From Candidatus Omnitrophota bacterium (GTDB taxonomy: Bacteria > Omnitrophota > Gorgyraeia > Gygaellales > Profunditerraquicolaceae), in the NCBI GenBank assembly GCA_026387265.1, contig JAPLLZ010000029.1, positions 1,064-65,063 of the forward strand: a stretch of DNA of 64,000 nucleotides, read 5' to 3'. Positions within the stretch are counted from its first letter, which is position 1, and each line of letters begins with the position of its first letter. The notes under the pieces are model-generated. The model was not told the DNA's origin, made no database searches, and worked only from the letters and a program-made list of their open reading frames with translations. Of the stretch, positions 16,404 to 59,710 are shown piece after piece. The position numbers and the translations under genes were made by a program.

Positions 16404-17094
16404 AGAAATAATTAAAGTCAACTCGATTTGTAAGAGTTATCAGGATAACTTAACTAACCTGGAAGTATTAAAAAATATTAATTTTTCTGTTTTGGCGGGT
16501 GAATTCTTGGTAATTCAGGGGCCAAGCGGCGCAGGAAAGTCGACGCTTTTACATATTTTAGGCGGTTTGGATAATCCGACCCAAGGGAAAGTTTATTTTC
16601 AAGGAGCGGATATTTATGCCATAGATGAGAATAAGCGTTCTGCTTTGCGCAATGAGAAAATAGGTTTTGTTTTTCAGTTTTTTCATCTTTTGCCGGAGTT
16701 AAATGCTTTAGAGAATGTTTTGTTACCGGGAATTTTAAAATCCTGGTGGGATAGGAAAAAAAGCTTAGGCAAGGCGCTTGAACTTTTAGAAAGATTAGGA
16801 TTATCCTCCAGGTTAAAACATCGGCCGGGTGCTTTAAGCGGCGGAGAACAACAGAGAGTGGCGATTGCCCGGGCGTTAGTCAATTGTCCGCAGCTTTTAC
16901 TTTGTGATGAGCCTACGGGTAATTTAGATTCAGAGAATGGTAAAAATATCCTGCAGCTTTTAATTGAGCTTAACCGGGCTCAAAAGATTACCATTGTGAT
17001 GGTTACTCATGATAAAGATATTGCCTGTGGAGCCGGAAGAATTATTCATTTGAAGGATGGGGTTATTCTAGGAAATAATAATGATAAACACTAA
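16396..17094 (+). CDS. lolD: Lipoprotein-releasing ABC ATPase
   Basis: Walker A GPSGAGKST, signature LSGGEQQRVAIARAL, Walker B LLLCDEPTGNLD; overlaps lolE by 8 nt. Confidence 0.85.
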   Translation: MSEEIIKVNSICKSYQDNLTNLEVLKNINFSVLAGEFLVIQGPSGAGKSTLLHILGGLDNPTQGKVYFQGADIYAIDENKRSALRNEKIGFVFQFFHLLPELNALENVLLPGILKSWWDRKKSLGKALELLERLGLSSRLKHRPGALSGGEQQRVAIARALVNCPQLLLCDEPTGNLDSENGKNILQLLIELNRAQKITIVMVTHDKDIACGAGRIIHLKDGVILGNNNDKH

Positions 17095-17217
17095 ACCCGA
17101 AAAACGAAACTCTAAACAAACTCAAAATTCTAAACTCGAAACTCAAAACATTGGTTTAAAAATTTGAGTTTTGGATTTAGGATTTGTTTAGGATTTAGAG
17201 TTTAGTGTTTAGAGTTT
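17089..17217. repeat. Inverted heptamer-array element, copy 1
   Basis: Left arm of CNCTAAA/CTCGAAA-type heptamers (17089-17147), 15-nt centre, right arm of TTTAGRR/TTTGAG-type heptamers (17163-17217); begins in the last lolD codons, ends 4 nt before the ilvE SD. Confidence 0.7.
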
Positions 17218-17233
17218 ATTAAAGGAGGTAAGC

Positions 17234-28296: not shown

Positions 28297-28980
28297 ATGG
28301 TTTATCTGATTAACATTTTAATTATATTGCTGGCGATTGCAGTAATTAAACTGGTGTTAATTTCTATCTTTTTCTATGCTGATATTAGGGCGGCGCAAAA
28401 AAGAGATCCTGCGGCGAAAAGTTTCTTAGAGATAATTTTACTTTATCCCGGGCTGCACGCTTTAGTTTATTATCGGATTGCGCATTTATTCTATGGAATA
28501 AGGTTATTCTTTTTAGCGCGCCTGTTATCTCAGGCCGGTAGGTTTTTTACCGGTATTGAAATTCATCCGGGAGCTAAAATCGGTAAACGTTTTTTTATTG
28601 ATCATGGGCTAGGAGTAGTGATTGGAGAGACGGCGGTTGTGGGTGATGATGTCCTGCTTTATCAGGGATCTACCTTGGGTGGAACCGGTATTGTTCAGGG
28701 TAAGCGCCATCCTACGGTTGGTAATAATGTGGTTATTGGAGCCGGAGCCAAAGTTTTGGGCAACATTGTTATCGGAGATAATTCTTATATTGGAGCAAAC
28801 GCAGTAGTGGTGAAAGATGTTCCGCCGAATTCTACAGTAGTGGGTGTTCCCGGTAGGATTACAAAACAGGATGGTAAGAAGATGGATGTCAGCCTGGATC
28901 ATGCGCGTATACTTGATCCGATTATGCAGACGATTGAAGAACTGCAGGATAGAGTTAAAGAATTAGAAAAGAATAAGTAA
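28297..28980 (+). CDS. cysE: Serine O-acetyltransferase
   Basis: [21 protein letters not shown], hexapeptide-repeat C-domain. ATG 28297 has a strong SD, giving an unusual hydrophobic roughly 25-aa N-terminal extension; GTG 28354 would give a canonical-length protein. Confidence 0.85.
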
Positions 28981-29113
28981 ACTCTAAACACGAAACCCTA
29001 AACTCTAAACAAACTCGAAACACTAAATCCGAATTTAAGAACTTACTTCTGAGTAATATTTGAGTTTCGGATTTAGGATTTGTTTAGGATTTCGAGTTTC
29101 GAATTTAGGATTT
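28979..29113. repeat. Inverted heptamer-array element, copy 2
   Basis: Left arm AAACTCTAAACACGAAACCCTAAACTCTAAACAAACTCGAAACACTAAATCCGAA, variable centre, right arm TTTGAGTTTCGGATTTAGGATTTGTTTAGGATTTCGAGTTTCGAATTTAGGATTT; fills the cysE-cysS spacer. Confidence 0.7.
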
Positions 29114-29120
29114 AATAATT

Positions 29121-30629
29121 ATGTCTATTTTTATATATAATTCTCTCACCAGAAAAAAAGAAGAATTTATTCCCTTAAAACCGAAGGAAATTAAGATGTA
29201 TGTTTGCGGACCGACGGTTTATGACGAGGCGCATATCGGCCATGCCCGCAGCGCCTATGTATTTGACGTGATTCGGAGGTATTTAACGTATAAGGGGCTC
29301 GAGGTTAAATTTGTGAGAAACGTAACCGATGTTGACGATAAGATTATTAATAAGGCGAAAAATGAATTTAAGGGAGAGGATTTAAATACGGCGGTGGGCA
29401 AAGTCTCCAATAAGTATTTAGATCTTTACCATGATGATATGAAAAGCCTGGGGATTCTTGAGCCGGATATTGAGCCGAAGGCAACCGAATATGTCGGCAA
29501 CAATAAGATGCAGGAATTTATCCAGCAGCTGATTGAACAAGATTGTGCCTATGTTGCTGATGGAGATGTGTATTTTGATATTAAAAAAGCCAAGGGTTAC
29601 GGAAAACTATCTAATCAGGCGATAGAAAAGATGGAATCCGGAGCTAGGATTGCTTTGGGCGAGAAAAAGAAAGACCCATTAGATTTTGCATTATGGAAAG
29701 CAGCTAAGCCGGGAGAGCCTGCCTGGGATAGCCCCTGGGGAAAGGGAAGGCCGGGTTGGCATATTGAATGTTCGGTAATGAGCTCGGATATTCTTGGGGA
29801 CGAATTTGATATTCATGGCGGTGGAATCGACCTTATTTTCCCGCATCATGAAAATGAGATTGCTCAATCTGAAGGCGCAGGTAAGACGTTCGCTCATTAT
29901 TGGATACATCATGGTTTATTGACAATCAATGCTCAAAAGATGTCCAAGTCATTAGGTAACTTTATTACTATAAAAGACGTGATAAATAAATATTCTTCCG
30001 ATGTTTTAAAGATATTTTATTTGCAGGCACATTATTCTAGTCCGGTAGATTTCACTTGGGAAAGGCTTGAAGAGGCTCACAAGGCAATTCAAAGATTTGA
30101 AATACTTTTCTTTAGAATGGATCAAGCGAGAAAAATCGGTATGACTTCTTCAGTGCAAACAGCTAATTTTATCGAAAAAAATAAAAACAATTTTATTAAA
30201 GCTATGGATGATAATTTTAATACACCAGATGCTTTAGCTAGTCTTTTCGATTTAGTTAATGATACTAACAAGTTTATAGATACAGAGAAACAAACTGCTA
30301 ATTATACAGAAATAGTAAATGAAGCAGAGAGGGTAATTATTGAATTAGGAAATATTTTTGGTCTTGAACTTAAGTCTATTCAAATATCCACTAGAGCATT
30401 CAATTTAGAATTATCCGAACCTAGCGGTAGTAGTAGTTCTAGTAGTAGTTCTAGTAGTAGTTCAAGTAGTGAGGAAATTGCAGAAATCAAATCGTTAATT
30501 GTTGACCGAAACGAAGCAAGGAAGAGTAGGGATTTTAAAAAATCAGACGAAATTCGAAAAACACTAGAAGATAAAGGTATAATTTTAGAAGACACTAAAG
30601 ACGGTACAATCTGGCGTAGAAAGCTATGA
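29121..30629 (+). CDS. cysS: Cysteinyl-tRNA synthetase
   Basis: Class I HIGH (AHIGHARS) and KMSKS (KMSKSLGN) motifs, C-terminal ...LEDTKDGTIWRRK; 502 aa including a Ser14 linker insert. Confidence 0.95.
   Translation: MSIFIYNSLTRKKEEFIPLKPKEIKMYVCGPTVYDEAHIGHARSAYVFDVIRRYLTYKGLEVKFVRNVTDVDDKIINKAKNEFKGEDLNTAVGKVSNKYLDLYHDDMKSLGILEPDIEPKATEYVGNNKMQEFIQQLIEQDCAYVADGDVYFDIKKAKGYGKLSNQAIEKMESGARIALGEKKKDPLDFALWKAAKPGEPAWDSPWGKGRPGWHIECSVMSSDILGDEFDIHGGGIDLIFPHHENEIAQSEGAGKTFAHYWIHHGLLTINAQKMSKSLGNFITIKDVINKYSSDVLKIFYLQAHYSSPVDFTWERLEEAHKAIQRFEILFFRMDQARKIGMTSSVQTANFIEKNKNNFIKAMDDNFNTPDALASLFDLVNDTNKFIDTEKQTANYTEIVNEAERVIIELGNIFGLELKSIQISTRAFNLELSEPSGSSSSSSSSSSSSSSEEIAEIKSLIVDRNEARKSRDFKKSDEIRKTLEDKGIILEDTKDGTIWRRKL
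30429..30470 (+). repeat. In-frame 12-nt tandem repeat encoding Ser14 within cysS
   Basis: AGTAGTAGTTCT x2 + AGTAGTAGTTCA + AGTAGT = 14 consecutive Ser codons. Confidence 0.9.
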
Positions 30630-59289: not shown

Positions 59290-59710
59290 GGGGGTGAAAG
59301 GGTTCGACTTAAGATATGTCGCTTAAGAGCAGCATGCCGCGGATGTAAGGTTAGCCGCGTTAACAATCCTTGCACAATTCAAACGCAAACACAAAAACAC
59401 CAGTGTTCACAAACCGATTGGCAGCGTTACCGGGTTTTCAGCCGGTAGCATTTCCAGCTGGTTGCGTACCAGTCTTAGCGTTTAATTAAACGCTAAGCCT
59501 CTAGCTGTCCTGCCTACGGGATAGATTAGAGCTCAAGTAGGATAGTCCCGGCGGTTAGCCTTCCAAACCGGGGCAAAATCGAAAAGGCTGCATCTTGCAA
59601 ATCCTGCCGGGTAGGAGTTGCAAGGTTAAGAATAAATTACCAGGCTAAGCATGTAGCGGTTTTTAGGTGATTACTTAAGGACGGCGGTCCGATTCCGCCC
59701 ACCTCCACCA
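59290..59710 (+). ncRNA. ssrA: tmRNA (SsrA)
   Basis: 5' GGGGGTGAAAGGGTTCGAC; 3' tRNA-like end GGACGGCGGTCCGATTCCGCCCACCTCCACCA. The acceptor pairs GGGGGTG/CACCTCC with the G3-U pair. Tag ORF 59385-59489 has its stop in the loop of the CTTAGCGTTT/AAACGCTAAG hairpin. Confidence 0.9.

Follow-up and report, generated by a model that had tools for sequence, protein, structure and literature searches.

The spacer between the genes cysE and cysS on a 64,000-nucleotide stretch of DNA from Candidatus Omnitrophota bacterium (contig JAPLLZ010000029.1 of assembly GCA_026387265.1; the whole stretch is called the window in the following) is occupied by an imperfect palindrome composed of two inverted arrays of seven-nucleotide units at 28979-29113. 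The element belongs to a family of dispersed repeats whose long form encloses a PF05635 gene; the copy between cysE and cysS carries no open reading frame (ORF), fills an intercistronic spacer and bears no signs of a dedicated switch. It is best explained as an ORF-less derivative of a widespread selfish PF05635 cassette, which is probably cut by RNase III or melted by ribosomes in the transcript and whose effect on cysS would be a by-product; a probability of about 0.7 is assigned to this explanation. Loci in other genomes are cited below by L numbers.

The element between cysE and cysS

A second inverted heptamer array of the window, with conserved arms and a free centre, extending from the stop codon of the upstream gene almost to the next start and including a weak Shine-Dalgarno (SD) sequence in its right arm, had been described in the initial annotation of the window, and these points were confirmed by comparing both copies and by an alignment of 54 copies (Table 1). 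A period of 7 was detected on both arms by Tandem Repeats Finder (4.7 copies of TAAACTC and 7.6 copies of TTTAGGA) with 71-80 % matches. The two arms are complementary and able to form an extended stem-loop; the RNA fold of the 135-base element reaches −38.4 kcal/mol (z = −4.4 in comparison to dinucleotide shuffles). With the nhmmer arm model, the right arm is matched with E = 2.4e-13 and the left arm with E = 6e-09 on the minus strand, i.e. as the complement of the right-arm model.

The first copy of the window shows 76 % identity to the second (28979-29113), folds with z = −5.1 and matches the model of the cassette arms at 17084-17221 with E = 3e-27. The right arms of both copies agree at 33 of 34 nt (TTTGAGTTTYGGATTTAGGATTTGTTTAGGATTT), and the left arms have AAACTCTAAACAAACTC in common. 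On both arms of both copies the periodicity is broken by CTAAACAA and TTGTTTAG, respectively, a feature not expected from simple low complexity. A third copy is absent from the 64 kb, the next-best match of the cassette-arm model having E = 0.58.

The upstream gene was identified as cysE (ORF 28297-28980) by TIGR01172 of NCBIfam with 245 bits, and the C-terminus of its product (...ELEKNK, then stop) is identical in the relative L123. The first residues of CysS, MSIFIYNSLT, align with MPILIYNSLT of the same relative; the gene starts 7 nt past the last unit of the element.

Table 1 Coordinates of the cysE-cysS element, its parts, the adjoining gene borders and the other family copy in the window
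Feature	Positions	Strand	Remarks
cysE stop codon TAA	28978..28980	+	overlaps the first unit of the element; ORF 28297-28980
Left arm	28979..29027	+	about 7 units AAAnnCT/G (AAAC-type); landmark CTAAACAA at 29005-29012
Centre, 31 nt	29028..29058	+	differs between copies; own small stem of 5 bp
Right arm	29059..29113	+	about 8 units TTTnGnn; landmark TTGTTTAG at 29080-29087
Whole element	28977..29120	+	nhmmer cassette-arm model, E = 2.5e-26, 86.8 bits, model positions 3-146
SD-like AGGA	29107..29110	+	part of the last unit; base-paired within the basal stem (minimum free energy (MFE) fold)
cysS (cysteine--tRNA ligase)	29121..30629	+	directly downstream; ATG 29121; TIGR00435 (NCBIfam), 548 bits
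Copy 1, same family	17083..17219	+	stop of upstream ORF 17092-17094; start of next ORF 17234

The long form is a PF05635 cassette

Between the arms of three pairs with a length of 470-520 bp (L106, L034 and the frameshifted L055) lies an ORF of about 120 amino acids. The encoded protein belongs to PF05635 (23S_rRNA_IVP / S23p, an Avd-like four-helix bundle) with 55 bits against a gathering score of 33.8, and its closest solved relative is 2rld_A (E = 5.5e-13). To our knowledge no catalytic activity of PF05635 proteins has been described. More than 500 relatives were found in a metagenome scan with this cargo protein. Among the best 80 of these loci, which represent relatives of the very protein found inside an element (58-77 % identity), both arms abut the gene in 50, one arm in 25, some of which lie at contig ends, and no arm in five. 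The cassettes are 441-580 bp long, mostly 465-480 bp. No cargo other than PF05635 was found in them, and a parent encoding a transposase was not among them.

The ATG of the ORF is part of the inner left arm, where ATGACcgAAAttcAAAATTCAAAAC encodes MT.IQNSKQ, and its stop codon marks the beginning of the right arm. Both arms, with the stretch for the first codons of the ORF, are present in the short form of about 140 bp, which therefore corresponds to a cassette without the body of its ORF. The relationship of the window element to this long form was established with a model made from the arms of 50 metagenomic cassettes only, which is independent of the window; it matches 28977-29120 over the full length (Table 1). 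The 31 nt of the centre, located where full cassettes have the body of the S23p ORF, contain no PF05635 ORF, and for this reason the window element is classified as an ORF-less derivative and not as a cassette.

In the cassettes the S23p gene is co-oriented with the upstream gene in 36 of 40 scorable cases, and the left end lies within a few nt of the stop codon of the upstream gene. A polarity classifier, a hidden Markov model built from cassette arms and correct in 23 of 25 cross-validation cases, revealed the same bias for the short elements (41 to 18, p = 0.004). For the two window copies the classifier gives marginal values of +1.3 and +3.4 bits, i.e. weakly "sense". A GCAC/ATAT unit had been tried as polarity marker and was given up in favour of this classifier, as it gave a non-significant 13 to 6.

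Short elements in more than 20 phyla

A degenerate 24-mer derived from the core common to both copies was used to determine the distribution of the family, in a scan that covered one genome per species; about one match is expected by chance (own estimate: 40 bits against 1.2e12 positions). At least 119 stretches in metagenome-assembled genomes (MAGs) and one single amplified genome were detected, spreading over more than 20 phyla. Among the hosts are many lineages of Patescibacteria/candidate phyla radiation (CPR), Omnitrophota, Dehalococcoidia/Chloroflexi, Desulfobacterota and other Deltaproteobacteria, Planctomycetota, Nitrospirota, WOR-3, Elusimicrobia, Bacteroidota, Acidobacteriota, Latescibacterota, Aminicenantia, Actinomycetes, Gammaproteobacteria and others; all hosts of this TTTAGGA-type family are uncultured. 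The GC content of the loci ranges from 0.29 to 0.61, so that the family is not a binning artefact of one lineage.

The nhmmer arm model delimited 71 pairs of arms, always in the order A-type then T-type and mostly 110-170 nt long; the ends are nhmmer envelopes with an uncertainty of several nt, and the genes in these loci are longest-ORF calls. A MAFFT alignment of 54 pairs shows a single architecture: about four outer units, CTAAACAA, three to four inner units (consensus ...ATTCAAATGACCAAAATTCAAAAC), a free loop which differs among the copies, and the mirror image. Every unit of both arms has the invariant skeleton TTT.G.. / ..C.AAA. With 22 invariant columns in copies from many genomes, this alignment also speaks against the possibility, named in the initial annotation, that low complexity alone accounts for the similarity of the copies. 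The number of outer units varies, which makes the outer ends fuzzy. The nearest neighbour of a copy came from the same phylum in 25 of 49 cases (6 +/- 2.5 expected), hence lineage-specific subfamilies exist; both window copies belong to an Omnitrophota subfamily with AAACTC-type units.

Both neighbouring genes were called for 52 short copies, of which 42 lie between co-directional, six between convergent and four between divergent genes. More than half of the short copies fill the whole spacer, 0-20 nt from the upstream stop codon and the next start, as both copies in the window do. Copies which are 85-90 % alike, loops included, have unrelated flanks, in the same MAG as well as in different MAGs; for example, copy 1 is 85 % identical to the element L028 at an unrelated locus of another Omnitrophota MAG. 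Therefore the short form or its parent has dispersed, and the family is multi-copy, with two members in the 64 kb of the window. The three longest arm pairs (978-2103 nt) were considered as cargo carriers and rejected, since they enclose ordinary genes and consist of arms of separate elements. The idea that the arms serve to close all three reading frames was also dropped: 21 of 61 elements do so, compared with 28 % of shuffles.

Further observations concern the occurrence of the arms in other data. All three public short-read contigs from Logan with identical CysS (L001-L003) start inside the right arm, from about 29071 onward, which indicates that assemblies break at the palindrome or repeat. 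In IMG/VR, 19 contigs classed as viral (L208-L226) bear arms of the family and are either true viruses or misclassified CPR-like contigs; several of them hold three to five elements in 6-9 kb (L219/L226, L221, L213). S23p was not found by tblastn in these 19 contigs, and a tblastn search of phage records with the cargo protein gave only two weak partial matches. Small GC-rich palindromes of the types GGCCTGCCTGCCGGCAGGCAGG, CCGCCAGCTGGCGGAC and ...CCCGC..GCGGGAATGAC... are nested in heptamer elements or abut them (L127, about 1188-1209; within the left arm of L068; beside the arms of L014, L115, L007, L012, L020 and L037), and heptamer arrays appear to be landing sites for other mini-repeats.

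Relation to 23S rRNA intervening sequences

In a Saccharibacteria MAG (L102) a short copy of about 122 nt is inserted into the terminal loop of a 23S rRNA helix at positions 1206-1226 of the large subunit rRNA model, just 5' of GGUAGGGGAGCGUUC. Judged from E. coli 23S rRNA, this helix is presumably helix 45, the classical site of intervening sequences (IVS). Insertion into a 16S or 23S helix loop applies to L102 and not to the window element. IVS elements with S23p ORFs and their excision by RNase III are already known. The IVS of Coxiella burnetii (428-444 nt) lies in helix 45 between complementary borders, and the SD of its S23p ORF is poor; the ATG is preceded by three heptamers in tandem (GACAGAT), whose number varies between strains, and cleavage by RNase III takes place where the first of these repeats begins (PMC4990558).

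The cassette family resembles such rRNA IVS of Coxiella and Leptospira in many respects: a length of about 430-480 nt, complementary arms forming a long stem, a PF05635/S23p ORF with poor SD, tandem heptamers upstream of the ATG, the existence of ORF-less and decaying versions, and a sporadic distribution (PMC4990558). In contrast to them, the window copy lies in an intercistronic mRNA spacer and is devoid of the ORF, and its arms are long degenerate arrays of seven to eight units with a consensus conserved across phyla.

Seven-nucleotide arrays beside other PF05635 genes

A tblastn search of plasmids gave 30 records, mostly cyanobacterial, annotated as "four helix bundle protein", with 33-44 % identity. 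All 12 plasmid PF05635 genes that were inspected by eye adjoin 7-nt arrays, and the unit differs from gene to gene. The arrays are inverted in Nostoc punctiforme and N. commune (GAAGTCG), N. flagelliforme and Aulosira (AATTCAA), Planktothrix (CCCCAAT and AATCGTA), Dolichospermum (AATTCGT), Anabaena cylindrica (AAAGTAA), Chlorohelix (ATGAAGG) and Monoglobus; direct or mixed arrays occur in Treponema (CCGCTCT), Bernardetia and Chondrinema (ACTG-type units). The CCCCAAT unit of Planktothrix we take to be that of STRR1, one of the short tandemly repeated repetitive (STRR) sequences. As a control, three 50-kb stretches were scanned for period-7 arrays. On the pNPUN01 stretch, five of six arrays lie within 7-166 nt of its two four-helix-bundle genes; both arrays on the Treponema stretch flank the four-helix-bundle gene; on the Chlorohelix stretch, with its imperfect arrays, none was picked up by the strict detector. 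The constant feature beside PF05635 genes is the period of 7 nt and not the sequence of the unit.

Several details of these plasmid loci deserve mention. The two paralogues of N. punctiforme pNPUN01 (L239, 21567-22269 and 24543-25112) are 2.4 kb apart, lie near an integrase and XisH/XisI and have their own units, GGGTGTA/CTACACC or GAAGTCG/CTTCCGA. Downstream of the gene on the Chondrinema litorale plasmid (L238) the units ACTGATT, ACTGTTA, ACTGATC and ACTGAAA are found; they resemble the TAACTGA repeats of Beggiatoaceae and Bacteroidetes (PMC4679880). Heptamer-flanked four-helix-bundle genes also occur in defence loci of Anabaena cylindrica pANACY.01 (L232), Planktothrix (L228), Monoglobus (L236), Chlorohelix (L234) and Dolichospermum (L231), where they lie between the members of the pairs cas2/cas1, DISARM drmD/MmeI-type enzyme, hsdS/hsdR and helicase/methylase. 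This fits the published enrichment of PF05635 near immune genes (PMC10053308).

How the arrays work is a separate matter. They could be read as sequence and not as a hairpin, i.e. as binding arrays on DNA or RNA for a protein such as the S23p pentamer or a recombinase, similar to the subterminal repeats of some transposons. The invariant skeleton of every unit, next to variable positions which pair in only about 40-55 % of cases without covariation, argues for such a role, as does the constancy of the 7-nt period beside PF05635 genes in spite of units as varied as GAAGTCG, AATTCAA, CCCCAAT, GGGTGTA, CCGCTCT and others. However, protein pairs with 74-95 % identity have a common unit while one pair with 76 % identity does not; strict specificity of protein for unit is ruled out by this pair, which also speaks against strictly sequence-specific recognition. 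Arrays could moreover be homogenised without any protein by template switching at quasi-palindromes and slippage. Binding arrays are accordingly considered a rather doubtful possibility, and one compatible with the origin from a selfish cassette, as it concerns how the family works and not what the window copy is.

A still wider proposal, likewise tentative, would regard the PF05635 gene and its inverted 7-nt arrays as one self-contained selfish module of transcribed spacers and rRNA loops, the protein of which acts on its own arms, as RNA or DNA, for retention or spread. Much of the excess of intergenic heptamers (cyanobacterial STRR, the GGGAATC pairs of Xanthomonas, TAACTGA) would then be arms or footprints of such modules, the window element being one such footprint.

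Does the hairpin gate cysS?

According to the initial annotation the structure could gate the translation of cysS. As a dedicated cis-regulatory RNA, the hairpin would sequester the region of the cysS ribosome binding site and release it upon a signal or upon translation of cysE. The geometry is suitable: AGGA (29107-29110) and the 3' base of the stem are 7-14 nt away from the ATG of cysS and paired in the MFE fold, and a ribosome terminating at the cysE stop codon in the first unit would open the base of the stem. The filling of the spacer by more than half of the co-directional members and the retention of a heptamer hairpin between cysE and cysS in relatives (L127, altered in L123 and L126) point in the same direction. 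Yet the same element is present at more than 100 unrelated junctions in more than 20 phyla and once in 23S rRNA. SD-like motifs are absent from 36 of the 58 window genes, so the weak SD of cysS is normal in this genome and carries little weight.

Tests for selection on RNA structure were negative too. RNAalifold gave no consensus hairpin for the 54 copies. In a hand-drawn structure of 62 pairs, 73.4 % of the cells are standard pairs, compared with 74.9 +/- 0.4 % after shuffling of partners, and all 500 shuffles reached the observed value; the pairing stems from the invariant skeleton AAA..C opposite G..TTT, while the two variable positions per unit do not covary. A structure under compensatory selection was therefore dropped. 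Among 39 copies between co-directional genes, the sense strand is the more stable one in 20 and the antisense strand in 19, and G-U pairs (151 against 160) show no bias either. Without covariation and strand bias nothing indicates selection on the structure of the sense-strand RNA. Rfam contains no curated match; the best hit, a plant miRNA precursor with 32 bits against a gathering score of 90, is sub-threshold and reflects a generic hairpin. A CsrA-type sponge of GGA motifs was set aside without a direct test, as the GGA units are complementary to the units of the opposite arm and rRNA contains members of the family as well.

The corresponding spacers of relatives are equally instructive. 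The best CysS match to the window is 75 % identical, and the gene order ispD-ispF-cysE-cysS-tmk-holB-PSP1-metG is kept in four relatives. The element of the window recurs in the cysE-cysS spacer of L127 (E = 1.4e-19), where a GC palindrome is nested in it. The hairpins of L123 and L126 are shorter and keep the unit register, with a skeleton altered on both arms (TAAAC to TAAGC, GTTTA to GCTTA), and L123 retains a remnant of the old right arm. In L124 a different, GC-rich element of 341 nt takes this place. Between cysS and tmk, where the genes overlap in the window, L127 has 60 nt and the three other relatives have GC-rich elements of 153-198 nt. It follows that a heptamer hairpin is old at the cysE-cysS site and that palindromic repeats land and are turned over in the spacers of this operon. 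Remodelling or replacement of this kind counts, with the preceding results, against a device dedicated to cysS, which is considered improbable. An incidental effect on the translational coupling of cysE and cysS is plausible.

An intrinsic terminator or attenuator between the two genes is less probable again. A strong hairpin right after the stop codon with a U-rich 3' arm would suit it, but a terminator scan of 28700-29300 gave no sites, the AU-rich stem lacking a GC-rich core followed by a T-run; the element lies within a conserved string of co-directional genes with 0-nt spacers further on; and members are also present in rRNA and before essential genes, e.g. rpsS. A promoter-like match at 29112-29141 is at chance level. 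Least credible of all is a simple heptamer array expanded in place by slippage, with low complexity as the cause of the resemblance between copies: the period-7 arms and the over-representation of heptamer simple sequence repeats (SSRs) in bacteria (reviewed in PMC4692102, PMC4679880) would agree with it, but 54 copies from many different phyla agree in unit order, in the CTAAACAA break and in the sequence of the inner arms, the cassette-arm match stands at E = 2.5e-26 against 0.58 for the next best in the window, and of the features of heptamer SSR/STRR only head-to-tail 7-nt units are found here, not near-perfect units variable by slippage.

Proposed history and fate of the element

The derivation from a selfish cassette can be combined with the position in the operon as follows. 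The element would have been present in the cysE-cysS spacer since before this Omnitrophota clade diversified, and it would be co-transcribed with the operon ispD-ispF-cysE-cysS-tmk. Its transcript is predicted to fold into a long imperfect stem in which helices of 5 bp are broken every 7 nt. This stem is most likely a substrate of RNase III, like the rRNA IVS members, and cleavage would separate the messages of cysE and cysS; the suggestion is made because of the cleavage of the Coxiella IVS, and excision is assumed by analogy with Coxiella, Salmonella and Leptospira (PMC4990558). Alternatively, ribosomes which terminate at the cysE stop codon in unit 1 may open the base of the stem and thereby free the last units and the start of cysS. 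The effect on cysS would be a by-product of where an element can survive and not an evolved switch. As the base of the hairpin brings stop and start codon together, it may explain why the element is tolerated in tight operon junctions.

Several points weigh against this account. Co-transcription, RNase III cleavage and melting by ribosomes are presumed in it, as are a suitable specificity of RNase III in Omnitrophota and a means of movement for either form. The stem is AU-rich with one or two mismatches in nearly every unit. No S23p gene was detected by tblastn with the cargo protein in the 64-kb window. Among 61 flank pairs there was no recurrent target-site duplication, and no sharp terminus was seen. 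Finally, a heptamer hairpin persists in this spacer across relatives with 70-75 % identical CysS, which could instead mean that it is useful there.

Comparison with known repeats

Correia/NEMIS, ERIC and BIME elements are short, multi-copy and non-coding; they consist of imperfect palindromes with a length of about 100-150 nt and lie in transcribed spacers. Repeats resembling miniature inverted-repeat transposable elements (MITE) or repetitive extragenic palindromes (REP) are derivatives of a longer gene-carrying form, and Correia elements are cut by RNase III when they are co-transcribed. The present family agrees with MITE/REP-like repeats as a short dispersed palindrome in spacers which derives from a gene-carrying form. 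Unlike them, no transposase, defined terminal inverted repeat end or target-site duplication was seen, the cargo of the long form is a four-helix-bundle protein of 120 amino acids, and the host range exceeds 20 phyla.

The intergenic 7-nt units are shared with known heptamer repeats, namely cyanobacterial STRR, the inverted GGGAATC pairs of Xanthomonas (PMC4692102) and the TAACTGA repeats of Beggiatoaceae and Bacteroidetes (PMC4679880). Like the element described here, they lie close behind the 5' ORF (28 nt on average in Xanthomonas, PMC4692102), mostly between co-oriented genes, often as convergent pairs capable of hairpin formation, and a part of them extends over a stop codon; they are suspected to spread horizontally, though by no known mechanism. 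They differ in being near-perfect and variable in copy number and in being interpreted as G-quadruplex or regulator-binding sites, whereas the units here are diverged and the whole architecture of 140 nt is inherited as a unit. The convergent pairs close behind the 5' ORF in Xanthomonas (PMC4692102) and the TAACTGA arrays (PMC4679880) are thus prior knowledge, and no link of PF05635 to heptamer repeats was found in either paper.

The relationship of PF05635 to Avd, an accessory protein of diversity-generating retroelements, is known as well (PMC10053308): both share the PF05635-like fold and family, a pentameric four-helix bundle. In contrast to Avd systems, no reverse transcriptase, template repeat or variable repeat accompanies the cassettes examined. 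In the literature searched, which included few subscription journals, no description of the cross-phylum consensus family with its ORF-less copies in mRNA spacers was found, although an earlier description is possible; for a general link between PF05635 and heptamers the same search yielded only the remark on the single case of Coxiella.

Further observations in the window and its relatives

Spacers of the same operon in Omnitrophota relatives (L123, 662-797 and 3008-3162; L124, 3659-4001 and 5383-5582; L126, 5443-5630) also contain GC-rich structured repeats of another family (CGGGTGAC...GCGGG-type, 130-340 nt), which is unrelated to the heptamer elements. The CysS of the window (29121-30629) consists of 502 amino acids, compared with 450-514, mostly 467-496, in the listed relatives; its residues 4-500 match 465 positions of the profile, which indicates an internal insertion of about 25-30 amino acids. 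A tmRNA gene is located at 59290-59710 (Rfam, 165 bits); the tag predicted by ARAGORN (AKPLAVLPTG, then stop) is unusual and may result from a mis-called resume codon.

Significance

For the window, the unsupported "riboswitch-like" reading for cysS is removed, and both heptamer hairpins are copies of one repeat family. In practice, the elements interrupt short-read assemblies and give rise to spurious ORFs in MAGs. IVS elements and S23p ORFs have been known since about 1990 with function and spread unexplained, and an excess of heptamers has likewise been reported repeatedly as unexplained. The present data tie IVS, S23p ORFs and heptamer repeats together: 75 of the best 80 out of more than 500 metagenomic PF05635 genes and 12 of 12 on plasmids are accompanied by 7-nt arrays, nearly all period-7 arrays on two of three 50-kb stretches flank PF05635 genes, and one short copy is a genuine insertion in 23S rRNA.

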